DNA from: a virus | Taxonomy: Duplodnaviria > Caudoviricetes | Virus record (IMG/VR): IMGVR_UViG_3300037722_000284 | Span: 1 to 59,307 of that record | Direction: 5' to 3' (one strand) | DNA length: 59,307 nucleotides | Shown: piece by piece, positions 164 through 48,832 of the stretch | Numbering within the stretch: the first letter of the stretch is position 1 | Layout: every line of letters starts with the position of its first letter | The notes under the pieces: model-generated | What the model was told of the DNA's origin: nothing | The model's database searches: none | What the model saw: the letters and a program-made list of their open reading frames with translations, nothing else | Translations under genes and position numbers: made by a program

Positions 164-751
164 ATGCGCCCCAAACGTCCTCTGTCCCCCAAACATTTCG
201 CCAACTTCGCGATTTCCGTCCTTATCTTGTGCGCTGCCCTCTGGTTCATCCTCGTGCTCGGGACTCGGCCAGCGAGCGCCCATCCGCATGACGAGCTAAT
301 CGCTTGGCAGAACGCGTGGGTGGGGGAGGTCATGGCCGAAGGTGGGCTCACCCCCGAGATGGTCGAAGCCTGGGTCCACATGCGGGAAGCACACGGGTGC
401 GACTGGCCGAGAGCGAACTGTGTGTTCGTTCAGCCGCAAGCGAGGTCAGTCACTCCCCCGAGCGACCAGACTCACTCATACGATGTCGAGCAGTGGCGCC
501 CGTTGGTCGAGTCCTACTTCCAACCCGCGGACGTACCCTGGGCGATGCGTGTCATGGCGTGTGAGTCGAGAGGGGATCCGTATGCGAAGAATCCTCGCTC
601 AACCGCGTCTGGCCTTTTCCAAATGGTGCGTTATTGGTGGTCAGGGGCATCCGCGTATCCAGCGTTCGACCCGTTCAACCCGGAGGCGAATATCCGCGCT
701 GCTGCCTGGCTGTTCTACGAAGAGGGAGCTTCTCAATGGGTCTGCCGATGA
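164..751 (+). CDS. Secreted/membrane-anchored lytic transglycosylase (SLT domain)
   Basis: N-terminal hydrophobic segment ending ASA; catalytic CES motif (VMACESRG), ASGLFQ, NPEANIRAA; AGGAGG RBS. Confidence 0.85.
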   Translation: MRPKRPLSPKHFANFAISVLILCAALWFILVLGTRPASAHPHDELIAWQNAWVGEVMAEGGLTPEMVEAWVHMREAHGCDWPRANCVFVQPQARSVTPPSDQTHSYDVEQWRPLVESYFQPADVPWAMRVMACESRGDPYAKNPRSTASGLFQMVRYWWSGASAYPAFDPFNPEANIRAAAWLFYEEGASQWVCR

Positions 752-779: not shown

Positions 780-2231
780 TCAATATTCGTCCACCTGATC
801 GTCCCCGCTCATCGCCTCAACCACCCGCAGAATCTCATAGCCACCACTCAACCCGTCCACCTGATCGTCATGCACGTCTTTCAGCCCGAAGACTCTCAAC
901 TCATCCAAGAATGCTTCGTTCCACCCCCCCGCCAGGATGAACACTTTCCCTTCCCTCGCTCTTGCCGCGACCGGCTTCGCCCTCGTAGCCTTGTCCCCTG
1001 ATGGGATCAGACGCATGACTCGATGACCGTCGAGAACACTCGCTCGGTAGTGCGCCACCACGGTCTTGCCGCTCGCGCCCCTCTCCTGCTCGATCGACTG
1101 CACCGTCGAGGATCCATCCAAGGTCGCGGTCGCCCGGACCAGTTCTTCCACGCCGCCAGGGTCGCGCCGATCCCGCGCGACGTGTTCAACTATCCAGTAC
1201 GGCGGCGGCGGTAGCGAATGGCCCCCGGCGCGGAACTTCTCAACCATCGCGTCGCTCAACCTCGACCACTTGGACAGCTTCACCCCGGCAGTCCAGTCAG
1301 GATCCGGGTTGTCGTCGGTCGCCTTCGTCGCAGCGAAGTCCCAATGCCGGACCGTCGAAATCAGGTAGCTCCGATGTGGTAGCTCGCTTCGGTCGAGAAT
1401 CATCATCTCGTCCGGCTCGAAGAACCCACCGACTGATTCCGCGTCCCAGTCGCCCTTTCTCAGTTGCAGGAACGTGGTGGTCGAAAGTTCGCTCAGCGAT
1501 TGCTCATACACGTTGATGTCCAAGAACGGGTTGTCCTCGATGAACGCCGGGATGAACAGCCGGTTCGGATTGTCTTTCACCCCGACTGGCAGCCCGAACC
1601 GTTTCTTGACCCACAGATGCCCGCGCCCGCCAGGGTTGCTTGCGCCCCTCATCCTGATCGGCACGTTCGAGCCCAAGAGCCTTCTCAACCGCGAAAACAT
1701 ATACGTGTATTGCTCTTGGGAAAACTGGGTCAGTTCGTCAAACCCGATGAACTGGAACTCGGCGGACTGGTACCGCTTCTCGTCCCCGTCGTGCTCCATG
1801 TAGCCGAATTGGAGTGACGCGCCGGTCGAGAACCGCCAGACCTTTCCTTCGCCGTCCCAGGCTGCCTCCTTGTTCCCGTCCCACCATTGGTGTGACCGAT
1901 GCATCAGCGCGCCAGGGAGCGCGAGATCTCGGTACGTGCGGCGAAAGATCATCGCTGAATATCCAGGCACGTCGAGATATTGGGACGCGGCGCGAAGAAC
2001 CCCTTCGCTTTTCCCGCCCCCCGCCGCGCCCCCGTACAGGATCTCCAACACGTCGTCGAGCAAACAGAACGTCTGCTGTTTGACGTTGCGAACCCCAGTC
2101 TCGGGATTCACGAACCCAGTTTGGATGAACCTATTCGTCCTCGGGGTCAGCGACCGCGCGATACGGGATCGCTCGGCTTCCGACATCGACGACAACAGGG
2201 TCCGGTAGTCCGCGGTCCCTAATGACGGCAT
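780..2231 (-). CDS. terL: Terminase large subunit
   Basis: Walker A GGAAGGGKS, Walker B FIGFDELTQF, SNPGG, WDFA nuclease motif, HDDQVD; start may be 2186. Confidence 0.95.
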   Translation of the reverse strand: MPSLGTADYRTLLSSMSEAERSRIARSLTPRTNRFIQTGFVNPETGVRNVKQQTFCLLDDVLEILYGGAAGGGKSEGVLRAASQYLDVPGYSAMIFRRTYRDLALPGALMHRSHQWWDGNKEAAWDGEGKVWRFSTGASLQFGYMEHDGDEKRYQSAEFQFIGFDELTQFSQEQYTYMFSRLRRLLGSNVPIRMRGASNPGGRGHLWVKKRFGLPVGVKDNPNRLFIPAFIEDNPFLDINVYEQSLSELSTTTFLQLRKGDWDAESVGGFFEPDEMMILDRSELPHRSYLISTVRHWDFAATKATDDNPDPDWTAGVKLSKWSRLSDAMVEKFRAGGHSLPPPPYWIVEHVARDRRDPGGVEELVRATATLDGSSTVQSIEQERGASGKTVVAHYRASVLDGHRVMRLIPSGDKATRAKPVAARAREGKVFILAGGWNEAFLDELRVFGLKDVHDDQVDGLSGGYEILRVVEAMSGDDQVDEY

Positions 2232-2910
2232 TCAAGTTTCCTATCATTTCAGCCAACTCGTCGGTCGTCTGGATTATCACTTCATGCGACGAGACAGTCT
2301 GGTTCTGCGTGATCTCGGTCGGCATTCCGATAGCCAACCTCTCCGCGTTCATGAGAGCAGGGATCGCGCGTGCCGCGTCGCGCATGTACCGGTACAACTC
2401 TTTGGCGCCCAGCGCGGACAGTTCTTCCAGCATGGAGGCACCTTTCGCTTCCGCCGCCTCGAACGCCATCGCCAGTTGCTTGATCCCTTTGGCCGCGATG
2501 TCTCCATGCCTCGATGCCATCTCCATCGTCTTCTCAGCGATCGTCGCAGACCAGATCCGCTGCCTCCACTGGTCATACGCGCGGGCTCGTGCATTCCAGT
2601 CAAAGTCGGATCCCACCTTTCGCACATACGTTCCAGTCACGGCCATCTTGTCCGCGACCTCTTGCTTCGTCCGTCCCATCCCGAGAGACAAAAACGCGGT
2701 GAACAGTTCGTACTGCCGGTCTGTCTCCCCGTCGATCTGGTACCAGGCTTCGTTCTCGCCGGTTGAGTCAATCGCCTTCTGGGATACCTCGCGCCCGAAC
2801 TCGACCTCATCCCACGTCCCGATCTCGAAACCCTCAACGTCTACTTCAACTTCACGGTCAAAGTCGTCGACCGCGTCGATCACGGTCCTGAAGCTCGATG
2901 TCTTTCTCAC
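2131..2910 (-). CDS. terS: Probable terminase small subunit
   Basis: Directly upstream of terL; GET..YELF, HTH-like segment, WNARARAYD pattern. Confidence 0.7.
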   Translation of the reverse strand: MRKTSSFRTVIDAVDDFDREVEVDVEGFEIGTWDEVEFGREVSQKAIDSTGENEAWYQIDGETDRQYELFTAFLSLGMGRTKQEVADKMAVTGTYVRKVGSDFDWNARARAYDQWRQRIWSATIAEKTMEMASRHGDIAAKGIKQLAMAFEAAEAKGASMLEELSALGAKELYRYMRDAARAIPALMNAERLAIGMPTEITQNQTVSSHEVIIQTTDELAEMIGNLNAVIRDRGLPDPVVVDVGSRAIPYRAVADPEDE

Positions 2911-3174: not shown

Positions 3175-3492
3175 ATGTCAGCCGACTACCAGCCCGACCA
3201 TTTCCTCAACCCGGCGCCCCCGATCTGGCAGAACCGCGTCCGCTGTTTCGTCTTCTCCCATGATTGGACCCTCTACGCGTTCAACCATTGGACCCTGCAA
3301 GCGGACCTGATCTGCGTCGCCTGCTCTCGGACGATCACCTTCGACCTCGCTAGTCTCACGCCTGAAATACAGGAGGTCGGTTCGGTGGAAGAATTGATTG
3401 CGCCCCCGAACGGACCCGAGCGGATCGATCCCGGCGACCTTCATCGCCGAGCAAGGTTCGTCCCCGAAGACGCGACCGTTGAGGAACACTGA
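3175..3492 (+). CDS. Hypothetical protein (Cys/His-containing)
   Basis: ATG just after the previous stop; TGATG coupling to portal. Confidence 0.6.
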   Translation: MSADYQPDHFLNPAPPIWQNRVRCFVFSHDWTLYAFNHWTLQADLICVACSRTITFDLASLTPEIQEVGSVEELIAPPNGPERIDPGDLHRRARFVPEDATVEEH

Positions 3493-5087
3493 TGGCAACG
3501 ATCCTTCCCGCTAGCGCGTTCTCGCATCGTGTCCCCAATGATCTCGAACTGATCCGCCAGATCGTCCAGCACGAGGTCCAATACTTCTCGATGGAGAAGG
3601 GCGACCTTGAAATGTACCGCGACTACTACGAGGGCGAGCAGTTGCTCGTCTACGGATCCGAGAAGTTCAAATCCACTTTCGGTGACGACTTCAAGGGCTT
3701 CAAAGACAACTGGTGCGGGGTGGTGGTTGACGCGCTGGTCGACAAACTCGAAGTCGAGCATTTCGCCATCCGCGAGGACCAGGGTGAAGGGTCGTCCTCT
3801 CCCGAGTCAACCAACTCGACTCTCAACGACAAGTTTCAGCGCGCCCTCGAACTTTCCAATTTCGACTTCCAGCAGGACGAGCTACACGAATACTCGGTCG
3901 CCCAGGGACGCGGCTTCATGGTGGTTTGGCCGAACCCGATAACCGGATTCGATCTTCATTGGAACCCTGCGGAAATCATGCGGATCACCTACACGAACTA
4001 CGACCCGTTCACCCCCGCGTACGCGGTGAAGCGTTGGCAGGACGAATCGGGGGAGATTCTCGTCACGGTTTACACCGCGGATTTCGTCTACAAGTTCACC
4101 GAGTCGGCCGCGAGGCAAATCCTCCCGATCAACGACCGATATGGAATCATGTCGACCATTCCCGATAGCTCCGGTGTTGGGGGTTCTCTGGTCGAGCGGC
4201 GCGCCATCGACCCGCACACGAACCAGCCTGAACCGTGGCCGCTGCCCAACCCGCTCGGCGTCGTCCCGGTCGTCGAGTTCGCCAACAAGCGAGGTAGCGA
4301 GCTTTCCGACGTGATCCCCCAGCAGGACGCGGTCAACTACATCTTGATTTCCACTCTCGTCGCCGGGGAGTTCGCGGCCTTCCCCCAACGGGTTTTCTAT
4401 ACGCACGCGAAGGCACCCGCGGACGGATTCGATCATTCTCCGGGGAAAGTCTGGCGGTTCCCGATCGGGTTTGACGCGGAAGGAAAGCCGCTCCCGTTCC
4501 AGACCCACGAGTTCCGGCCCGCGACCTTGGGGGACTTCCGCCAGATCCACGACATGATGCTGCAAGACATGGCTTTGACCTCGAAAACCCCGGTGCGGTA
4601 TTTCATGCAGTCCGACCGTGGTGGACGCGGGGACGCGCCCAGCGGTGATTCCCTCATCGTCGACGACCAGCCATTGCTCGACAAGGTGGAAGACCGACAA
4701 GTCAGATTCGGGGTCGGGTACAAGCGACTGGCGCGGGTCGCCGCCCTCGCGTTGTCGAACACCAAGGCGACCAACGGACTACTCCCCCCAGTGATCGCAG
4801 ACGTACAGTGGAAGGATCGGCGCGCCGACTTCCGCTCCGTCCTGCTCGAAGACGGGTTGAAGATGAAGGAGATCGGCCTGCCCTTGTCCGTCATCATCAA
4901 GAAGCTCGGTCTGGGCCGCGACGAGGTCGCCGAACTGGAATCCATGATCGAGTCCGGCCAAATCCAAGACCTCCCGACGAAGTCTGTCCGCGTGATCGGG
5001 GACGAGGGGACGAGCGAGCCCGAGCCTGAGCCAGTCAGTCCTCCCGCCTCATCCGCGTCATCCGCTCCCTCTAATCGTGTAGACTGA
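3492..5087 (+). CDS. Portal protein (SPP1 gp6-like)
   Basis: YRDYYEGEQ, NWCGVVVDALVDKL, NPLGVVPVVEFAN, SELSDVIPQQDAVN, APSGDSL motifs; size and position. Confidence 0.92.
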   Translation: MATILPASAFSHRVPNDLELIRQIVQHEVQYFSMEKGDLEMYRDYYEGEQLLVYGSEKFKSTFGDDFKGFKDNWCGVVVDALVDKLEVEHFAIREDQGEGSSSPESTNSTLNDKFQRALELSNFDFQQDELHEYSVAQGRGFMVVWPNPITGFDLHWNPAEIMRITYTNYDPFTPAYAVKRWQDESGEILVTVYTADFVYKFTESAARQILPINDRYGIMSTIPDSSGVGGSLVERRAIDPHTNQPEPWPLPNPLGVVPVVEFANKRGSELSDVIPQQDAVNYILISTLVAGEFAAFPQRVFYTHAKAPADGFDHSPGKVWRFPIGFDAEGKPLPFQTHEFRPATLGDFRQIHDMMLQDMALTSKTPVRYFMQSDRGGRGDAPSGDSLIVDDQPLLDKVEDRQVRFGVGYKRLARVAALALSNTKATNGLLPPVIADVQWKDRRADFRSVLLEDGLKMKEIGLPLSVIIKKLGLGRDEVAELESMIESGQIQDLPTKSVRVIGDEGTSEPEPEPVSPPASSASSAPSNRVD

Positions 5088-5161: not shown

Positions 5162-5238
5162 CGTTACCCAAACTACCGACTCGTTTCAACTTCCCTCTAT
5201 GCTCGATACCAGCACGAATAGACCCAGGAGGTTGTGCG

Positions 5239-5898
5239 ATGTACGGGAACAAAGGGATGGTCGACTCCAAGGCTCGGATCGAGAGGATCCGGCGCCTGTG
5301 GCTGTTCGGTAGCGAAGGCGAGTCGGGGACAGGGACGAACCCGCCCTCAGTTGACCCGCCAGCCACCGATCCGCCTGCTACTGATCCGCCCGCCCCAGTT
5401 GACCCGCCCGAACCGGACACGTTCGACCGGGCGTATGTCACCAAGATCCGAGAAGAGGCCGCGGCCAACCGCGTCAAGGCCAAAGAACTCGAAGCCAAGC
5501 TGAAGGAATACGAGGACCGTGACCTCAGCGAAATTGACAAGGCGAAGAAGGACGCCGAGGCAGCCGCAGCAGAACGCGACGGCCTGCGTGCCGAGTTGGT
5601 CGAGACAAGGCGCGAGAGTCTCGTTCACAAGGTGGCCGCTGAACTGAAGTTCAACGACCCGTACGACGCCCTCGCCCTACTCCCCGCCCTCGAACCCGGT
5701 GACGACGGACTCCCGTCCGAACGCGCCGTCAAAGGTGCGCTCGAAACGATCCTGAAAGCCAAGCCGTACCTCGCGGCCGTTCAATCCCCTGGTGGGGGCG
5801 ACGGCAACTTCCGAGGAAACCCACCGCCTCCGAGCGATGAACGCGCGAAGGCACTCGAAGAGGAATTCCAACGAAAGGGTGGCGTGCGAGTCAGCTAG
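5239..5898 (+). CDS. Capsid scaffolding protein
   Basis: Pro-rich N-region, YVTKIREEAAANR coiled coil, KAKPYL; lies between portal and capsid. Confidence 0.88.
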   Translation: MYGNKGMVDSKARIERIRRLWLFGSEGESGTGTNPPSVDPPATDPPATDPPAPVDPPEPDTFDRAYVTKIREEAAANRVKAKELEAKLKEYEDRDLSEIDKAKKDAEAAAAERDGLRAELVETRRESLVHKVAAELKFNDPYDALALLPALEPGDDGLPSERAVKGALETILKAKPYLAAVQSPGGGDGNFRGNPPPPSDERAKALEEEFQRKGGVRVS

Positions 5899-5988
5899 GA
5901 GAACAGATTCCCTAACCCTCGTGTATAGGTCGAGGGTCGGGTTCGGCTACTCTCCCAATCGACATACCCGCTCCCAGGAGGACACCAA

Positions 5989-6426
5989 ATGTCATATATC
6001 AGCGAAGCCCCCATCGGTGGCAAGTTTCGCGCCGTGGCCCACGCGGACCTGGACACGGATCCGGGTTTGTGGGGAGATGCCGACCTTCTTTGTGTCCAGG
6101 TGGGCGCAGCGGGAACGCTCGAAGCCGCGTCCGCGACCGTCTGCCACGGTGTCATTTGGACCCGTGAGGGTCGCAAGGGCGGCACCGACGACAATCTCAT
6201 CATCGGCGGTCGGACCTACACGGTCCTGACCCGCGGCATTCTCTCGGAGATGGAAGTGGGCGCCTCGCCTGCTCTCGCCGCTGGCGATCAGGTCTACGCA
6301 GCCGCATCCGGCGATGTCGTTGTCGGTGGCGCAGGCGCAGGCGCAGGTGCCAAGTACATCGGCGTAATGGTCAACGACTCTACGCTCGTGCTCGACATCG
6401 GCCTCGGCGCAGACGGCACCGTGTAA
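5989..6426 (+). CDS. Capsid decoration/cement protein (probable)
   Basis: Small Gly/Ala-rich beta protein with AGDQVYAAASG directly upstream of MCP; AGGAGG RBS. Confidence 0.65.
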   Translation: MSYISEAPIGGKFRAVAHADLDTDPGLWGDADLLCVQVGAAGTLEAASATVCHGVIWTREGRKGGTDDNLIIGGRTYTVLTRGILSEMEVGASPALAAGDQVYAAASGDVVVGGAGAGAGAKYIGVMVNDSTLVLDIGLGADGTV

Positions 6427-6448
6427 TCGACCCCGAAGGAGGACAACC

Positions 6449-7675
6449 ATGACCAAGACTCTCACGAGAGCCTCCATCGCGGAGGTTGCTCGCAATGCGA
6501 CAGAAATGTTCGCAACCGCCAAGGCAGTGAACGACGCGCGTCTCGCGCGGATGAACTCGCTGCGCCTGTCCGGTTCGGACCTCGCCCACCTGGCGCTGTA
6601 CGGCTCGGACGTGATCGGGGAAGCCCCCGCGGGTTACCACTCACGCGTCGATGCCATCGACCACGTTCCCGGTTCCCGACTGACCCGCGACGGTCAGCCG
6701 ATCTCCGAGATCTGGAACGAGATGCAGCAGCGGAACAACCTGTTCAACCAGCACACGTCGTTTGTCGTGTCGCTGCTCACCTTCTCGGTGACGCGACCGA
6801 CCGACAAGGTGGGCGTGTATTCACGCGCCAAGTTCGAGCAGGCGACTGAGTTCGGTCGTCCGTCGAAGATCCGTCTGGCCTACCAGACGCGCGGCTTCCC
6901 GCTCGATCACTTCGACCTGGGATACGGCTTCACCGTCGAATTCCTCGACGATGCGGACAGCCGCCAGATCACGCAGATGGCCGCACAGGCGGAATCCGCG
7001 TACTGGGATCTTCAGTACGAGACCGCGTTGCTTGCCCTGTTCGAGAACGTCAACGCGACGGACAAGGACGGCGTGTCCGTGTCGCGCCTCTACAACAACG
7101 ACGGCGAGGTTCCCCCCGCCTACAAGCGTTGGGAGCACGACGGAACCCACACGCACTACGCGGTGGGCGCGACCCTGACCGAAGCGGTGCTGAACTCGCT
7201 GGAAGAGCACCTGATCCATCACGGGTATGGGGACAACGGGGAAACCCTCGTCCTGCACATCCACCGGGATCAGGTGGCGACAGTCCAGGCGCTCGCCAAG
7301 TTCGTCCCTGCGTCCGAGGCAACGCGGCCTTCGATCATCGACGGTCCAGTGCGCGGCCAGGAGCGTTCGGCTCCCTCCGGGCTCGAAATCGTCGGCTACC
7401 ACAACAAGCTCGTGATCGTCGAGAACAATATGATCCCGACCGGATACATCGTTCTCGTCGCATCCGGTGGGGCACTCTCGGCCCAGAACGTGATCGGACT
7501 GCGTCAGCACGAGAACCCGTCAGCGCGGGGTCTCAGGTTGATCGAGGGTGGCCGGACGGAGTACCCGCTGGTCGACTCGGTCTACGACTGCTACATGGGT
7601 GCCGGTGTCCGGCATCGTGGAGCAGCCGCAGTGTTCCAGATCACGGCTGGTGCCTACGAGGTTCCCGAGATCTAA
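6449..7675 (+). CDS. Major capsid protein
   Basis: 408 aa, strong RBS, follows scaffold and decoration genes, followed by a hairpin terminator. Confidence 0.85.
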   Translation: MTKTLTRASIAEVARNATEMFATAKAVNDARLARMNSLRLSGSDLAHLALYGSDVIGEAPAGYHSRVDAIDHVPGSRLTRDGQPISEIWNEMQQRNNLFNQHTSFVVSLLTFSVTRPTDKVGVYSRAKFEQATEFGRPSKIRLAYQTRGFPLDHFDLGYGFTVEFLDDADSRQITQMAAQAESAYWDLQYETALLALFENVNATDKDGVSVSRLYNNDGEVPPAYKRWEHDGTHTHYAVGATLTEAVLNSLEEHLIHHGYGDNGETLVLHIHRDQVATVQALAKFVPASEATRPSIIDGPVRGQERSAPSGLEIVGYHNKLVIVENNMIPTGYIVLVASGGALSAQNVIGLRQHENPSARGLRLIEGGRTEYPLVDSVYDCYMGAGVRHRGAAAVFQITAGAYEVPEI

Positions 7676-8987: not shown

Positions 8988-10832
8988 ATGGCGATAATAT
9001 TGGATTCCTTCCGCTTTCGGGATCACGACAATGCCAACGTAGCGCTCAATGCATCTACCTTGTGGGGCATAGCCGTGAATACCAATGCCTCCTTCAATCC
9101 TGCACGACGATTTCGTCTTCGTGTTGATTTGCAAGCTGTGGATAGTGGGGCGACTTCTGCATATAAGCTTCAGTGGCGCAAAAACGCAGGTACTTTTGCT
9201 GATGTGGCTGTTAATTTCCCCGGCCAGTCCGACCTTCGTGCAGCGGGCCAGATCGATCCCGTAGAGATTGTCGCCAACACGGGGTATGTCGATCAAGATA
9301 GTACCGGTAACCTGATAGGGCCTGGTAGTGGATTTGTGACCGGAGATGGGATGGATATCACCAATTTGTCAGGGTCCATAACCATGTTCAGTACCTCAGA
9401 AACTGAACTCGAATGGTCCCTCTGGTATCACCTTTACGATGACGAGGGTGTCCCGTTTTTTGCTGATGGCGATACCATTGAGTTTCGAGTAGCGAGATCT
9501 GATGGAACTCCTCTTGCATCAACGGTGATCCCGACTGTCACCGTCGAAGTCCCAATCGGCTACATCGGTTTCAACCCCGCCGAATCTCCGGGCCATATCG
9601 GGCCGTTCGTTGACACCAACGACAATATGTACGCCCTGGTTGAAGCCTCAGCCCACAATCCGCTGCTGATCATGGTGAAGTCCACTGATGGGGGAGACAC
9701 CTGGGCGCCGGTCGACATGGCCGGTGTCCCGGCAGGTGAAGACCTCGAAGGTATCGACGCCGTACAGGAAGGCGATGTGGTCCACGTTGCCCACTGGGTG
9801 ACAGGGACACTGGCCGATGGCGTCTACTACCATCGGTTCAACCTCTCCGATCATTCCTCTCCCGACCAGTGGGCCGAGACCGACACTGTGATCGACAACG
9901 CGGGTGGAGCGGGGCTCGCGCGTCGGGATCAGAACTGCACGATCAGTGTCCTCTCCAACGGCGACCTCCGTGTGCTCTACCAGTATGAGGTTGCTCCGGT
10001 GGAGATCGGAATGCGATCCCGCATCTCGGGTACATGGGACACGTCAACTACGGTCATCTTCGACAACGCGAACGGAAGCTGGACGGGTGTTACTTCGGTC
10101 ATCGACCCCGCCACCGACATCATCTATGCGTTTGCTCACGACGATGACACGGAACATCTCCGGGGCAAAGCCATCCTCGCCAACGGGTCACGCCAGAACC
10201 TTTTCGCCGACACTGAGACGACTACTGGCACCCTGGTTGATACGAACACTGGTTCGTCGCTAGAAGAAGAGATGAACTTCACCCCGCCGATCTTGTGGGA
10301 TGACGGGGGCACCAAGCGTGTCTTCATAGCCTGGGTCGAGGACACCACCCTTGACCTGGAATCGGCCACCATCCAGGTCGGGTCTGGCGGGTCGGTCACG
10401 CTCAACGGTGGGGCGAACTCGACCACGTTCGTTAGCCGAAATGTTGGACAGGGCCGGATGCCCGATGTCACCGCCGCCAGGGACTCAACAGGTCGAATCC
10501 ATCTGATCTACGCTCTCGCCGCCGATGATGTTGGTGGGGCGAGCGAGCTATATCGGAATTGGTCTGACGATGACGGGGCCACCTGGGAGTCGACCGAAGT
10601 GTTGGCCGATACTCGTTCATGGGAGAACCGCATCTCCATGCCGCGAGCGTTCACATTTACTCGCGGTGGGGGCGAATACCTTGGCTGGGTCTATTACGAC
10701 GCCACCCTGTACGAAGAGGACGCTGATCCTGCCTTGCTCGGGAACGATGCAGCCGAGTTCATGGGTCACGTCTGGTACGAAGAAATCGCCTTTGCCATTA
10801 TCTTCGATATCGTCATGGTGGTGACGGAGTAA
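8988..10832 (+). CDS. Virion adhesin with BNR/Asp-box (sialidase-like) beta-propeller
   Basis: Asp-box motifs STDGGDTW and SDDDGATW; beta-rich; GAGGAGG RBS. Confidence 0.7.
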   Translation: MAIILDSFRFRDHDNANVALNASTLWGIAVNTNASFNPARRFRLRVDLQAVDSGATSAYKLQWRKNAGTFADVAVNFPGQSDLRAAGQIDPVEIVANTGYVDQDSTGNLIGPGSGFVTGDGMDITNLSGSITMFSTSETELEWSLWYHLYDDEGVPFFADGDTIEFRVARSDGTPLASTVIPTVTVEVPIGYIGFNPAESPGHIGPFVDTNDNMYALVEASAHNPLLIMVKSTDGGDTWAPVDMAGVPAGEDLEGIDAVQEGDVVHVAHWVTGTLADGVYYHRFNLSDHSSPDQWAETDTVIDNAGGAGLARRDQNCTISVLSNGDLRVLYQYEVAPVEIGMRSRISGTWDTSTTVIFDNANGSWTGVTSVIDPATDIIYAFAHDDDTEHLRGKAILANGSRQNLFADTETTTGTLVDTNTGSSLEEEMNFTPPILWDDGGTKRVFIAWVEDTTLDLESATIQVGSGGSVTLNGGANSTTFVSRNVGQGRMPDVTAARDSTGRIHLIYALAADDVGGASELYRNWSDDDGATWESTEVLADTRSWENRISMPRAFTFTRGGGEYLGWVYYDATLYEEDADPALLGNDAAEFMGHVWYEEIAFAIIFDIVMVVTE

Positions 10833-11128
10833 TGCTCCCTATCAAATCATGGAAGATCATCTACGCAGATGAGTCTGAGTTCACTTCTGAGGACGGAACA
10901 TGGGCTGAAGCGCCCCCATTCGGTGTCCAGTGCGTCGTCTACTACCACGTCCCTGAGCCGTACAAGACCATTGACGGTGGGCGGGATAACGGCAACATCT
11001 ACCTTTACTTCGGAGAGAGGATCCACCCTGACTATCAGGGGATCAAGATGGGGCTGTGGATGGACCGTGATGGAGCCTACCGGATACAGGATCTCGCTAC
11101 TGCGTCTACCGCTCCCGAGGTCAACTGA
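10832..11128 (+). CDS. Hypothetical protein
   Basis: Coupled on both sides (TAATG, TGATG). Confidence 0.75.
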   Translation: MLPIKSWKIIYADESEFTSEDGTWAEAPPFGVQCVVYYHVPEPYKTIDGGRDNGNIYLYFGERIHPDYQGIKMGLWMDRDGAYRIQDLATASTAPEVN

Positions 11129-13566
11129 TGCCCACAATCTATCGCAAGACCAACACGGACTCGGACCTCACTGGTGGGGCCACCTACAACAAGGCGATCC
11201 TTCCGCCATCGTCGGACACGTCAGGCACCACCGACATCGTTGTTGCCGCTAATACGACCGTCAACGACTTCGGATATACCGCGGCTGGTATCCCTGGGGC
11301 CGCTGGGATCACCGGGGACTACACGGTCGAAGTCGAGGTCGTCACCGCCCAAGGTGACCTGTTCGCATCCATCGCGGTAGCTCGGGTCAATTCGGCGGGC
11401 ACCCAGCAGGCCATTTCCTCATTCACGGCCGAGCAGGCGGTCGCGGTCGGAACTCTTACATTCAGCCTGTCGTCGATCAACCTTGGTACTTGGGTTGCCG
11501 GGGATCGACTCCGTGTCACCTACCGGATTCGCAACGCTCATCTCCACACTTCGCGTACCCAGACGATCCAACATGGAGGGGCCAACTCTGAGGTTGTCGC
11601 ACCGTGGACCCCGCCTCCGATCAACAAGGTCCAGAATGAATCCGTGTCTCTTTCGGATGATGATTTCTCCATAAAGGGACTCTTGCACTTGGTGTCGGAT
11701 TCCGTTTCCGTCTCTGAATCCGAAGCCCCCGTTGTGTTTAATACGCTGATTGTCGTTCAAGACGAGACTGTCAATATTGGCGTCAGTACCGCCGTTCCCT
11801 TTGACATCGTTCGGGTTGAGGAAGAATCCACTTCCCTGTCCGAAGCCACAGTCCGGTTCCTCGCGCTGGTCCGTTTGGAGGGCGAGTCGGTTTCTCTCAC
11901 CGAAGCCCACATCAGCCTCCGCAGGCTCGTCCGATTGGTGCTAGAGACTTCCGCCGTTTCCGAGTCGGTCGAGAGGGTTGCTGTCCTCCTGCGCACGATC
12001 ACTGAGTCCGTCGAGATCACTGAAGACGACACTCATCTCCGGTCACTGTTCCGGTTGGTCGCTGAGTCGGTTTCCGTCTCCGAAGCCGACTCTCATGTTC
12101 GCGGCCTTCTGCGCCTCCTGGCCGAAACAGTCGAAGTAGCCGAGGACTCTTCCGCGCTCAGATCCCTCCTACGACTGGTTCTCGAATCGGTGTCTGTGAT
12201 CGAAGTCGACCAGTCCCTTCTCGGACTCGTTCGGCAGGTTGGGGAGACGGTCGAGACCTCCGAAGATGCCAAGTCGTACCGGAGCCTGATTCGCCTTCTT
12301 GCCGAGTCGGTCGAGATCACCGAATCCGACGATCATGTGCGACAACTCTTCCGCTTGGTTGCAGAAACAATCGAGGTTGAAGAGTCGGTCACTCGCCTTC
12401 GTGGTCTTCTGCGACTCGCGGCCGAGGTTGTTTCCATCTCCGAATCCGATGAGATGTACCGCGGCCTCGCGAGAATCATCTCCGAGTCCCTGTCGATCTC
12501 GGAGACTTCCAACCGGCTCCGCGCCCTGGTTCGTTCCGAGGTCGATACCATCGCGATTGCCGAACTGGACCTTCGCCTCCGAACCCTCGTCCGCGCGGTG
12601 TCCGAGACGGTCGACATCTCCGAAGCATCCATCCGCGTTCTCGGGTTACTCCATCTGATCTCCGAGACAGTCGAGATCACCGAGGCTGATCTGCACGTCC
12701 TGGTCGAGATCGCGGAAGAACTCGTTCGGATAGTGAACGAGTCTGTTGACCTGTCCGAAGCCGACGACTGGTTCCGGGGGATCCTCGAACTTGTCTCCGA
12801 ATCCGTTTCAGTCACCGAGACTGTGGCGCGGCTCCGAACGATGGTCCGCGCGGTCACTGAGACAATCGACATTTCCGAGACGGTCGCCAACCTTCGTGAC
12901 CTCCTACGTCTCGCCTCCGACTCGATCTCCCTCACCGAGACGGATCTTCACTTCCGCGGCCTCATCCGCTCGATCACCGAGTCGGTTTCGATCTCCGAAT
13001 CCGCGCTCGAAATCTTGGTCACGATTGCAGAAGAGATCGTCAAGCTGGTGGCCGAGTCAGTTTCCATCTCCGAAACCGACGACTGGTTGCGCGGCCTCTT
13101 CAAGATCGAATCCGAGTCCGTTTCAATCACCGAACTGGTTGCCACGCTCCGCGCCCTCGCGCGCATCGAGTCCGAGGTTCTCGAAGTCGACGAATCCGAC
13201 GCGATCTTCCGGGCTCTGGTCCGCGCCATCCCCGAGTCAATCTCGATCACCGAAACCACCACGCGCCTCCGTTCCCTCATCCGCCTGTTCTCCGATGTTG
13301 TTGCCATCTCGGACACTCAGATCCACGCCCGTGATCGGATCCGCCTTCAGGCGGAACTCGCGTCCATCGTCGAATCCCCCGTCTGGATACGCGGGTTCTT
13401 CAAGATCGTGGCTGAGACGATCGAACTGTCCGAAACGGTCGCCTCTTTCGTCGCGGAGGCATACACCGGAGTTCTCCGCAAGTACCGGGATTTCCGAGCA
13501 CGGAACCGTGATTACAGCCAACGTGACCGGGACTACGACTCGCCGCGTGACCGCGACTACGACTGA
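11128..13566 (+). CDS. Long repeat protein (about 30 x 20-aa repeats), probable fibre/ruler
   Basis: Consensus xE[ST][VI]x[IV][ST]Exxxx[LF]RxLxRx[VI]; N-terminal beta domain; C-terminal RDRDY repeats. Confidence 0.85.
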   Translation: MPTIYRKTNTDSDLTGGATYNKAILPPSSDTSGTTDIVVAANTTVNDFGYTAAGIPGAAGITGDYTVEVEVVTAQGDLFASIAVARVNSAGTQQAISSFTAEQAVAVGTLTFSLSSINLGTWVAGDRLRVTYRIRNAHLHTSRTQTIQHGGANSEVVAPWTPPPINKVQNESVSLSDDDFSIKGLLHLVSDSVSVSESEAPVVFNTLIVVQDETVNIGVSTAVPFDIVRVEEESTSLSEATVRFLALVRLEGESVSLTEAHISLRRLVRLVLETSAVSESVERVAVLLRTITESVEITEDDTHLRSLFRLVAESVSVSEADSHVRGLLRLLAETVEVAEDSSALRSLLRLVLESVSVIEVDQSLLGLVRQVGETVETSEDAKSYRSLIRLLAESVEITESDDHVRQLFRLVAETIEVEESVTRLRGLLRLAAEVVSISESDEMYRGLARIISESLSISETSNRLRALVRSEVDTIAIAELDLRLRTLVRAVSETVDISEASIRVLGLLHLISETVEITEADLHVLVEIAEELVRIVNESVDLSEADDWFRGILELVSESVSVTETVARLRTMVRAVTETIDISETVANLRDLLRLASDSISLTETDLHFRGLIRSITESVSISESALEILVTIAEEIVKLVAESVSISETDDWLRGLFKIESESVSITELVATLRALARIESEVLEVDESDAIFRALVRAIPESISITETTTRLRSLIRLFSDVVAISDTQIHARDRIRLQAELASIVESPVWIRGFFKIVAETIELSETVASFVAEAYTGVLRKYRDFRARNRDYSQRDRDYDSPRDRDYD

Positions 13567-13584
13567 TTGGCTAGGATCCTTTTC

Positions 13585-13953
13585 ATGGCCCTCGACCCGA
13601 CGATCCTCCGCAAGATCCGACATGAGATCGGGCAGTCCGAGTTCGCGGACATCGATGACGACGATGCGCTAGAGATCATCTTCAACGATGTGGACGAAGG
13701 CAATTCGTCAGTCCTTTCCACCGCGCTGATCGTCTGGCGTTGGCGACTCGGTCAACTCTCCTCCCGCGCGTTCGACGTGTCGACCGAAGGCACTTTGCTC
13801 TCCCGCAACCAGCGGATCCGGTTCATCGAGCGGAGAATCAAAGAACTTGAAGTCCTCACCGACTTGACCGCGCGGGCCGAGAACATGGCCGTCAACCCGC
13901 CCTTGTCTGTCTCCGGCGACTTCACAATCAGCGGGAGCGCAGAGTTCTCGTGA
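13585..13953 (+). CDS. Probable head-tail adaptor
   Basis: About 120 aa helical protein (KIRHEIG...) at the start of the neck module; TAGGAT-N7-ATG. Confidence 0.6.
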   Translation: MALDPTILRKIRHEIGQSEFADIDDDDALEIIFNDVDEGNSSVLSTALIVWRWRLGQLSSRAFDVSTEGTLLSRNQRIRFIERRIKELEVLTDLTARAENMAVNPPLSVSGDFTISGSAEFS

Positions 13954-14435
13954 TGGAAGCGGAGACGAGCGCGGAGGAGGCCGTCACCCTTGACTCGTGT
14001 ACCGCGATGGTCGAGGCGATCGCACCCCGTGTTCGCGACACCGCTCCGATGATCCTCCCCCTGCTCGTTTCGGACCTCCCGAACGAGGGTGTCGGGTTCG
14101 TCTGGCTCCAGGGCATCTCGCACGTTCGCAACCAAGCTCAGTCCCCACACCGGTTCTCGTTCTCCCCAACGCGGCTGTCCGAACTGATTTCTGAGAACCA
14201 CGACGTTGATCCCCAATACATGTACCACTCGCACCCGTCCGGACAACTCAACCTGTCCTCGGACGACTGGATGGCCCTCCGACACAACTGGCATGAGGGC
14301 TTCCGTGTCCCCTGGGTCGTGTTCCCGATGCGCGCGGGGCGAGACAGCTACGACGACTGGAAGCTCGGAAAAGTCGCAGACACACGGGTCGGGATCTACA
14401 CCCCCGAGTACTACAGGACCATCGTTCTGAAGTAG
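13950..14435 (+). CDS. JAB/MPN+ (JAMM) metallopeptidase
   Basis: PNEGVGF catalytic Glu plus YHSHPSG-x4-S-x2-D motif. Confidence 0.8.
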   Translation: MMEAETSAEEAVTLDSCTAMVEAIAPRVRDTAPMILPLLVSDLPNEGVGFVWLQGISHVRNQAQSPHRFSFSPTRLSELISENHDVDPQYMYHSHPSGQLNLSSDDWMALRHNWHEGFRVPWVVFPMRAGRDSYDDWKLGKVADTRVGIYTPEYYRTIVLK

Positions 14436-48167: not shown

Positions 48168-48832
48168 CGTCCCCCTCCCGTCTGCCACCCTGCCCAGTGG
48201 TACGCGAACTCGCTCACCCCGCGCTTGCCTTCGTACGCAACCGAGTAGACCGGTACCACTGTCGCCGTGTACCGCGTTTCGTTATAGACCCTTGTGCCGA
48301 TCAGTCGGAACGTATCGGACGTGTGAACTTGATCGACGCTCACCAGATCGTCGGGAGGATTGAACTGGGACCACAAGCGCGACCAGTACCGCCCTAACCA
48401 TTCGCGCCCGAAGTCGGAATGCTCATCGGTCAGTCGGAATCCGAACCGCTCACCCTGCCTCGCGGCTTCGCGATCGAACAGTCCAACCAGAGTCGTCGCT
48501 TCCGATACCGAGATCGTGGTTGCCGCACCGCCATGCTCGTATCCCATCGCGCGCTTCGTCACCCCGTTGCACCATTGGCGCACTAGACCTCGCTCGATCG
48601 TGTTCGCAGTCGTCAGTCGGTTGTGCCAGATCCGATATGCGCGTAACCCCGCGGGCGCGCCCTTGACGGTACGGACCTCGCCCATACGGTGCTCATCCGA
48701 CCACTTCGCTCCGCAGTAAACGCACCAGTAGTCGGTGCCGAATAGTGGGAACCTCTCGCCACGGTGGTCCGCGACTTGGCCTCCGCACTCGCTCTCGGGA
48801 TCGACCATCCGGTGCAGTAGTAGGTCGCTCAC
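48164..48832 (-). CDS. Hypothetical protein
   Basis: GTG start overlapping the ssb stop (GTGA); CVYC. Confidence 0.6.
   Translation of the reverse strand: MSDLLLHRMVDPESECGGQVADHRGERFPLFGTDYWCVYCGAKWSDEHRMGEVRTVKGAPAGLRAYRIWHNRLTTANTIERGLVRQWCNGVTKRAMGYEHGGAATTISVSEATTLVGLFDREAARQGERFGFRLTDEHSDFGREWLGRYWSRLWSQFNPPDDLVSVDQVHTSDTFRLIGTRVYNETRYTATVVPVYSVAYEGKRGVSEFAYHWAGWQTGGGR

Follow-up and report, generated by a model that had tools for sequence, protein, structure and literature searches.

A shared N-terminal site in the scaffold and major capsid proteins of an actinobacteriophage family, and a candidate JAMM/MPN+ peptidase for leader removal

The IMG/VR virus record IMGVR_UViG_3300037722_000284 is a complete phage record of 59,307 bp with direct terminal repeats (rated 100% complete), and its full length is referred to here as the window. 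The phage is actinobacterial, and three of its genes are the subject of this analysis, namely those for a scaffolding protein, a major capsid protein (MCP), and a small JAMM/MPN+ (JAB) metalloprotease. The scaffold gene (positions 5239 to 5898, plus strand) codes for 219 amino acids (aa). Its product matched seven PHROG families, six of which are scaffold families (best match, phrog_4708; E value, 2.4e-12), and it matched Pfam Phage_scaffold (PF06810) with an E value of 8.7e-8 and 32.8 bits, which is below the curated cutoff of 35 bits. The scaffold role is further supported by the position of the gene between the portal and MCP genes. The MCP gene (6449 to 7675, plus strand) codes for 408 aa, of which residues 61 to 407 matched the major head protein family phrog_3990 (E value, 2.8e-76). 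The protein belongs over its full length to this actinophage MCP family, which comprises mycobacteriophage clusters D, H, R, and U together with Gordonia and Microbacterium phages. The JAB gene (13950 to 14435, plus strand; 161 aa) begins with a GTG codon that overlaps the stop codon of the upstream open reading frame (ORF; 13567 to 13953) by 4 nt.

A first-pass annotation of this DNA had reported that scaffold residues 12 to 26 (ARIERIRRLWLFGSE) align with MCP residues 30 to 44 (ARLARMNSLRLSGSD) and that the MCP repeats the core of this motif as LALYGSD. The letters and coordinates of the alignment proved exact, and the repeat is present at MCP residues 48 to 54. The predicted scaffold leader comprises residues 1 to 25 (5239 to 5313, plus strand) and ends in LWLFGS, with a predicted cut at S25/E26 (slashes mark predicted cuts). 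In the MCP, the proximal site LALYGS/D (residues 48 to 54; 6590 to 6610, plus strand; predicted cut, S53/D54) is the copy conserved in the alignment with relatives. The distal copy LRLSGS/D (residues 38 to 44; 6560 to 6580, plus strand), which was used in the earlier 15-mer alignment, is possibly a second site or a relic. Because strong ribosome binding sites (RBSs) sit just before both annotated ATG codons, the motifs lie inside both proteins: AGGAGG (5226 to 5231) precedes the scaffold ATG at 5239 with a spacing of 7 nt, and GAAGGAGG (6435 to 6442) precedes the MCP ATG at 6449 with a spacing of 6 nt. The true starts are thus not placed downstream of the motif, a possibility that had been raised against the original claim, and no RBS-like sequence was found ahead of the first start codon after the site in either gene. 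The source's own MCP call (P0008) starts at M20 and gives 389 aa, though the strong RBS precedes the upstream ATG (region 6449 to 6505); this shorter start is still upstream of the motif. For the MCP relatives P0009 and P0010, the gene calls cover the whole protein (408 and 409 aa).

The ungapped 15-mer alignment has a BLOSUM62 score of 30, which was reached by 5 of 5,000 shuffles of MCP residues 1 to 65 and by 1 of the 84 remaining N-termini encoded in the window. Taken by itself, the 7-mer core (LWLFGSE/LALYGSD) is not distinctive within this genome, since its score was reached by 382 of 5,000 shuffles and by 13 of those 84 N-termini. As judged from sequence comparison, the weight of this core comes from the relatives and not from the window alone. 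The nearest MCP relatives (87% and 79% identity) keep LALYGSD exactly, whereas the distal copy drifts to LRLTGSD in the former and to LRLTGPD in the latter. The proximal copy also aligns with LPFGG/E of phage Riparian and PIYGA/E of phage NovaSharks, and G52 is invariant. Because the proximal copy is kept and the distal one drifts, the earlier 15-mer matches the scaffold site to the MCP copy that is under less constraint. The two nearest scaffolds (62% and 66% identity) start with MNPMLAQMVNLRLFGSE and MMMDMVLKANRLRLFGRE, and these short leaders keep only L.LFG[SR]E. Of the proposed motif AR[IL]xR[IM]xxLxLxGS[DE], the core therefore stood, but the AR[IL]xR[IM] half (ARIERIRR) was absent from both scaffolds.

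A total of 162 phage records contain homologues of the MCP (Mycobacterium, 72; Gordonia, 46; Microbacterium, 38; others, 6), with identities of up to 39%. We examined loci from 50 sources (36 IMG/VR records, 13 named phages, and the window), 49 of which contained both the MCP leader region and the scaffold; dereplication yielded 29 lineages whose MCP cores are less than 70% identical. Reading by eye, we found that both proteins of 24 lineages have a hydrophobic-Gly-x site, after which D or E is the usual residue. The site was unclear in three lineages (L003, L023, and L059), and neither protein carried a leader in the remaining two (L031 and L033). On this comparison, the conserved element is hydrophobic-Gly-x followed by an acidic residue, before which the cut is predicted. 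The site varies between lineages yet matches within one genome. Scaffold and MCP read PPFGG/E and LPFGG/E in Riparian, SIYGA/E and PIYGA/E in NovaSharks, KFFAFGG/DGG in both proteins of Sienna, LALSGH/D and VGLSGH/D in PBI1, ALHGR/DG and SIHGH/DG in Ajin, SIFGG/F and ATFGG/F in L029, and ISGS/E in both proteins of L013. In L023, the MCP site has Ala for the otherwise invariant Gly (TVFAR/E), and the scaffold keeps VILGA/E. Co-variation was assessed independently of the reading by eye, by finding the best ungapped 7-mer match of the MCP leader to scaffold-frame residues 1 to 150. Over the 29 lineages, the mean best score was 21.9 for same-genome pairs and 19.0 for cross-genome pairs, and none of 10,000 shuffled pairings reached the observed mean; the best 7-mer was the site itself in 15 lineages. 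For 20 of 23 lineages, the lineage-specific site pattern had no match outside the scaffold and MCP frames when plus-strand frames of at least 90 aa were compared; this figure has an element of circularity, since the two proteins themselves supplied the patterns.

Within the MCP clade of the window (120 proteins from a large protein collection, 46 to 100% identity), the site regular expression was found 18 to 48 residues before the conserved core in 117 members; by eye, the three misses show ..SGK/A, ..RGA/A, and ..RGA/E. The commonest forms in this clade were GA/E (48 proteins) and GA/A (28 proteins). The signal claimed in the first-pass annotation is thus kept across the MCP family and co-varies between the scaffold and MCP of the same genome. 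Doubled cores also occur elsewhere, as VPFGGD..VPFGGD in L027 and L028 and in 29 of the 120 clade MCPs (e.g., LFGDE..GHKLFGAA), and this recurrent doubling in several separate lineages might reflect trimming in two steps or a reserve site. Most of the conservation falls on the last 4 to 6 residues before the predicted cut and on the residue after it (P1′), and leader length ranges from 15 to about 57 residues. The leaderless lineages L031 and L033 provide a natural control: their MCPs begin MAKGY.., about 4 residues past the point at which the related L029 and L030 have the predicted cut (..FGG/FEMMARGY..), and the L031 and L033 scaffolds begin directly in the Gly/acidic-rich part.

Experimental protein ends are available for homologues. 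In the portions of the Patience report that were available (PMC4324244), the first peptides of gp21 start at residue 35 after a Gly, a nontryptic end left unexplained there, and gp21 is nearly absent from virions (3 spectra in particles); gp19 is listed as "Protease," gp20 as MuF-like, and gene 22 as a putative scaffold. According to the accessible text of a cryo-electron microscopy (cryo-EM) study, Thr20 is the first modeled capsid residue in Patience and Asn28 is the first in Adjutor (PMC11965321). We mapped these positions on proxies, namely Madruga (the same species as Patience by its taxonomy line) and PBI1 (the same cluster as Adjutor). The scaffold homologue of Madruga reads ..KRVLPIFGG/TSPE, and the Patience start lies 12 codons downstream (gene length, 786 versus 822 nt), which makes residue 34 a Gly and residue 35 a Thr. 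The Madruga MCP reads MATKELKIGGVPVFPIFGG/TAPV, with Thr20 directly after the Gly-Gly of PIFGG, and the PBI1 MCP reads ..VVGLSGH/D27-N28. Mapped in this way, the three independent experimental ends given in these sources coincide with the predicted cut in homologues or follow it by one residue. Because the homologue cut follows the residue after the invariant Gly, the cuts expected in the window are S25/E26 and S53/D54 (perhaps also S43/D44). The new N-termini predicted earlier (S25 of the scaffold and S43 or S53 of the MCP) were one residue early, and the homologue ends point to E26 and D54 (perhaps D44). In our judgment, cleavage of the leaders at this shared site is likely.

Only a few kinds of protease serve in capsid maturation, namely the HK97/herpes-type, ClpP-type, and S49-type serine enzymes and the host enzyme Prp. 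The profiles PF04586 (S78), PF00574 (ClpP), and PF01343 (S49) gave no match in the window at an E value of ≤0.1, and these searches were positive in 4, 13, and 14 of 14 control genomes, respectively. The earlier statement that the head module lacks a prohead protease thus extends, for these three profiles, to the whole genome. Among the 91 ORFs of the window, no peptidase family was present in the 25 of 31 Pfam families listed.

By motif, family profile, and predicted fold, the ORF at 13950 to 14435 is a JAMM/MPN+ peptidase, in agreement with the first-pass annotation. A hidden Markov model (HMM) of relatives' JABs matched it with an E value of 1e-29, and the link to these relatives rests on HMMs. 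A motif scan located the zinc motif HSHPSGQLNLSSDD (H93, H95, S103, and D106; 14226 to 14267, plus strand) and the catalytic E46 (14085 to 14087, plus strand), so that the pattern E-x(n)-H-x-H-x7-S-x2-D is complete (residues 93 to 106 plus E46). In 18 aligned JABs, E46, H93, H95, and D106 are invariant and S103 is nearly so; in 25 aligned homologues, all are invariant or nearly so. The window protein itself matched Pfam Prok-JAB (PF14464) with an E value of 0.006 and 16.9 bits, below the curated cutoff of 25 bits, and all 25 family members matched it at an E value of ≤0.01 (best, 5.7e-16). The family profile matched PfJAMM1 with an E value of 2.1e-15. An AlphaFold2 model of the protein (predicted local distance difference test score, 82; predicted template modeling score, 0.76) adopts the MPN fold. 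A Foldseek search of the Protein Data Bank with this model returned 45 matches at an E value of ≤0.001; the top match was PfJAMM1 bound to SAMP2 (5lda_A; E value, 2.5e-6), and Rpn11, CSN5, BRCC36, and Cap3 were also found. A complex prediction of the JAB with zinc and MCP residues 1 to 75 scored 0.11, under the 0.32 mark, a value that carries no weight in either direction.

Homologues of the JAB were detected in 21 of the 29 lineages, among them 19 of the 24 with clear sites and neither of the 2 without leaders. For the majority of lineages, the gene maps between the portal gene and the gene for a MuF-like protein or the scaffold. In Microbacterium phages, it lies at the left genome end and the motif has x6 spacing; in Shrew, it lies about 10 kb upstream; in Wollypog, the JAB domain carries an insert and is encoded at the right genome end. 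The homologues bear the GenBank names metalloprotease, peptidase, M67 family metallopeptidase, tail protein, Protease, and head or capsid maturation protease. Several of these records (those labeled "Protease," "head maturation protease," or "capsid maturation protease") anticipate JAB-dependent maturation, an idea that is thus not entirely new. In the record of L023 (G007), one TAG interrupts the JAB match (48340 to 48687). In Microbacterium Krampusvirus phages, the label "capsid maturation protease" is attached to other genes (L043, 6456 to 7874; L044, 6294 to 7199; L045, 6174 to 7592), some of which have a C-terminal extension. From their motifs (..ARTEINNAYH.. and ..HPNC.C), we take these products to be MuF-like minor head proteins, and the protease of the Krampusvirus phages is likely encoded by gene 3, a small JAB-like gene at the left genome end.

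These observations lead us to the following model. The scaffold and MCP would be made with short N-terminal leaders of 25 and 53 residues, respectively, each with a hydrophobic stretch and Gly-Ser at its end, next to an acidic residue. In the course of head assembly, these leaders would be removed after the residue that follows the invariant Gly, at S25/E26 and S53/D54 and perhaps at S43/D44. The enzyme would be the phage's own small zinc JAMM/MPN+ peptidase (13950 to 14435), which may treat the extended leader end as deubiquitinases treat the ...LRGG tail of ubiquitin and would replace the serine prohead proteases that are absent from the genome. The assignment of the enzyme is circumstantial, and we place it slightly on the probable side.

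Several findings weigh against this model. The JAB of the window is the most divergent of the set (tblastn against the phage collection gave no match), scores under the Pfam cutoff, and is encoded 7.5 kb downstream of the MCP gene among connector genes, outside the head module. The residue before the cut (P1) is not always small, being R, Q, H, or C in some lineages, versus the Gly-Gly of known JAMM substrates. Cleavage in the window's phage is itself predicted from the N-termini of homologues. For Patience gp23, the available part of the original 2014 report states a different cut, between residues 82 and 83 (PMC4324244); this conflicts with the 2025 cryo-EM model, which in its accessible text contains residues 20 to 85 and names Glu26 and Glu85 (PMC11965321). 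Five site-bearing lineages lacked a detected JAB. Two of these (L018 and L036) are short fragments, and a third (G003) is 77% complete, has a contig that starts inside the scaffold gene, and has an MCP that nests among JAB-positive lineages. G004 (50% complete) has matching leaders and no JAB in the 9.7 kb upstream and 10 kb downstream of its MCP gene. A true counterexample is G002 (the record of L012), whose leaders match (PIWPVAGA/S and IPNVAGGA/K) and in which no JAB was found by a search at an E value of ≤1 (positive controls, 5 of 5), by hmmsearch --max at an E value of ≤50, or by a motif scan. We had considered G002 incomplete, as Pfam showed no portal or terminase, and rejected this explanation after circularization: with the 127-bp end repeat removed, a 501-aa portal ORF closes across the junction, and a 479-aa ORF ahead of it was taken as the terminase by position only. 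The co-occurrence of motif and JAB proposed in the first-pass annotation thus holds in 19 of the 24 clear-site lineages but not in the complete, circularly closed G002, which is one instance of what had been named as a refutation, a relative that lacks the JAB and keeps the motif. A loose HxH..S..D scan of G001 to G005 returned implausible matches only. When the MCPs are placed in a tree (FastTree, midpoint root), the records without a JAB are found in two or three groups beside the branch of Microbacterium phages and Wollypog, a branch in which the JAB is remote and divergent. G002 implies either that another enzyme (of the host?) can cut or that the leaders act uncut in such phages.

The former possibility, generalized, would be that the leaders are cut at the shared site by a host protease or an unrecognized phage enzyme and that the JAB serves elsewhere, e.g., in tail or connector assembly; we regard this as rather unlikely. 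A host enzyme has a precedent in phage 80alpha, in which, according to the available part of that study, the N-termini of the scaffold and capsid protein are processed by host Prp (PMC5744158). G002, the JAB-free surroundings of the MCP gene in G004, and the location of the window's JAB among connector genes all fit such a division of labor, as do the gpK-like matches of the JAB and the JAB domains described in tail assembly clusters (PMC1779556, in the text available), which also count against a head role. Against a host enzyme, the phages of Mycobacterium smegmatis differ in their sites (FGG/E, SGH/D, FGG/S, and FGG/T), so that one host protease would have to accept G/E, H/D, G/S, and G/T in sites that co-vary per genome; because of these differences, a phage-specific enzyme fits better. 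A tail role is at odds with the position of the gene, mostly between portal and MuF or scaffold and away from tail genes. As for another phage enzyme, JAB-less relatives offered no other peptidase family: S78, ClpP, and S49 were found in none of the five records, a Pfam scan of the 89 ORFs of G002 gave no peptidase among the 25 of 36 families listed, and the head-module ORFs of G002, L029, L003, and L031 matched no Pfam peptidase, only ADP-ribosyltransferase and helix-turn-helix families. The ADP-ribosyltransferase domain (PF03496) lies in large ORFs upstream of the scaffold in JAB-less relatives (L003, 2582 to 4069, E value of 1e-23; L029, 6801 to 8483, MuF-like, E value of 0.0015).

The latter possibility would make the shared leader mainly an assembly or targeting signal to a common procapsid partner, with cleavage incidental or absent in the window's phage, and we judge this improbable. 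In 80alpha, the scaffold N-terminus is needed for assembly and cleavage of neither protein is needed, as stated in the available part of that study (PMC5744158). Because that leader is essential while its cleavage is dispensable, leader conservation need not reflect cleavage, which is a further reservation about our model; matched leaders in JAB-less genomes agree with a signal role, and an N-terminus missing from a cryo-EM model can also mean disorder. Such disorder does not account for the nontryptic N-terminus of Patience gp21 right after Gly-Gly, which, as far as the available data of that report go, is a chemical end. Furthermore, conservation of the last 4 to 6 residues and P1′ with variable leader length is the typical pattern of a cleavage site, and the existence of leaderless relatives indicates that the leader is not needed for the capsid fold to assemble. 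Finally, the resemblance could be due to chance or to true starts downstream of the motif, which we find hardly credible. The insignificant score of the 7-mer core within the window would allow for it, and the portal protein also contains a fitting heptamer (LLVYGSE, residues 51 to 57; 3642 to 3662). This explanation is already contradicted by the strong RBSs at both annotated starts with none before the next start codon, by the rarity of the 15-mer score among shuffles, by the co-variation over 29 lineages, and by the conservation of the site in 117 to 120 of the 120 clade members. The portal heptamer was set aside as a third substrate: it lies inside the portal-profile match (residues 34 to 444), no relative has a third carrier, and the match is probably due to chance.

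The arrangement in the window can be compared with five known systems. Like 80alpha, the window phage carries the same N-terminal motif, a short leader with one shared site, on its scaffold and MCP; both lack a classical prohead protease, and both combine an SPP1-type portal, an HK97-fold capsid, and a separate scaffold. In contrast to the host protease of 80alpha, the candidate in the window is a phage-encoded zinc JAMM peptidase, and its site ends in Gly-x and varies from phage to phage. The 80alpha cleavage site copies a host protein's own processing site. Patience shares with the window a homologous MCP (about 31% identical to that of the window, as measured on Madruga), scaffold, and JAB, has N-termini at the shared site, and has a JAB labeled as protease; the window phage is distant from it and differs in the doubled MCP site and the relocated, divergent JAB. 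The available text of the Patience and Adjutor papers (PMC4324244 and PMC11965321) draws no connection between gp19, the unusual gp21 N-terminus, and the 19 residues missing from gp23. With the S78, ClpP, and lambda gpC-type (S49) prohead proteases, the proposed system shares the removal of N-terminal parts of head proteins in maturation. It differs in that these families are absent from the window, that the candidate is a metalloenzyme rather than a serine enzyme, and that the scaffold is a separate protein with no delta domain. JAMM/MPN+ peptidases such as PfJAMM1 (with SAMP2), Rpn11, CSN5, and the CBASS protein Cap3 cut after the C-terminal Gly-Gly of ubiquitin-like proteins. The phage JAB resembles them in its E..HxHx7SxxD motif, its MPN fold, and a predicted cut after a Gly-containing extended tail with hydrophobic residues before it. 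It differs in that it is predicted to remove a leader of 15 to about 57 residues with no beta-grasp domain, in P1 (A, S, R, Q, H, or C), and in its predicted target, which is not an isopeptide bond but a peptide bond near the N-terminus of a structural protein. Phage JAB domains are treated only in tail assembly in the available part of PMC1779556. The JAB domain of lambda gpK (TAPK) is likewise encoded by a phage within a module for virion assembly, and weak sequence matches connect the two; gpK is fused to NlpC/P60 and encoded after the tape measure gene beside the ubiquitin-like TAPI, whereas the JAB described here is stand-alone and in most relatives is encoded in the portal-scaffold interval.

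A literature search yielded no paper on the shared site, its co-variation, or a JAMM/JAB/MPN-type head or capsid maturation protease. The finding is real, concerns a large family, and is partly anticipated by database labels. We consider it an evenly balanced proposition that an actinobacteriophage family comprising the window phage and more than 160 isolated Mycobacterium, Gordonia, and Microbacterium phages matures its heads by a fourth kind of prohead protease, a minimal phage JAMM/MPN+ zinc peptidase that recognizes a ubiquitin-tail-like hydrophobic-x-hydrophobic-Gly-x end on scaffold and MCP leaders, the site co-evolving with the enzyme in each lineage. If true, this would add a protease class to capsid maturation and would provide the first demonstrated case of a JAMM enzyme trimming an N-terminal leader from viral structural proteins, with deubiquitinase-style recognition of a substrate that has no ubiquitin fold. 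It would also explain the nontryptic N-terminus of Patience gp21 and the missing N-termini of the Patience and Adjutor capsid models, and it would give a rule for mature MCP N-termini in more than 160 sequenced actinophages. Annotations would have to be corrected, as the MuF-like "capsid maturation protease" of Microbacterium phages is not obviously a protease, and proteases are probably encoded by the small genes labeled "metalloprotease" or "tail protein." The hypothesis is directly testable in existing M. smegmatis phages.

The remainder of the head module comprises TerL (780 to 2231, minus strand), TerS (2131 to 2910, minus strand), and the portal protein (3492 to 5087, plus strand; Pfam SPP1_portal, E value of 1.5e-15; phrog_104, E value of 2.4e-57). 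Between the scaffold and MCP genes lies a gene for a cement or minor-capsid-like protein (5989 to 6426, plus strand), whose match to Pfam Phage_cement_2 (E value, 0.002) is under the cutoff. Relatives have a gene of similar size in the same place, often annotated as "minor capsid protein," and the gene order is as in the window. At the left end, on the strand opposite the terminase genes, a predicted secreted or membrane-anchored SLT-type transglycosylase is encoded (164 to 751, plus strand; Pfam SLT, E value of 1.1e-5). The head genes are separated from the connector genes by an unusual insert, which codes for an 812-aa protein (11128 to 13566, plus strand) made almost entirely of repeats of about 20 residues of the type ..SE(S/T)V(S/E)(I/V)SE....R.L.RL.., and it is flanked by a gene for a 614-aa BNR/sialidase-like protein (8988 to 10832; Pfam BNR_2) and by the JAB gene.

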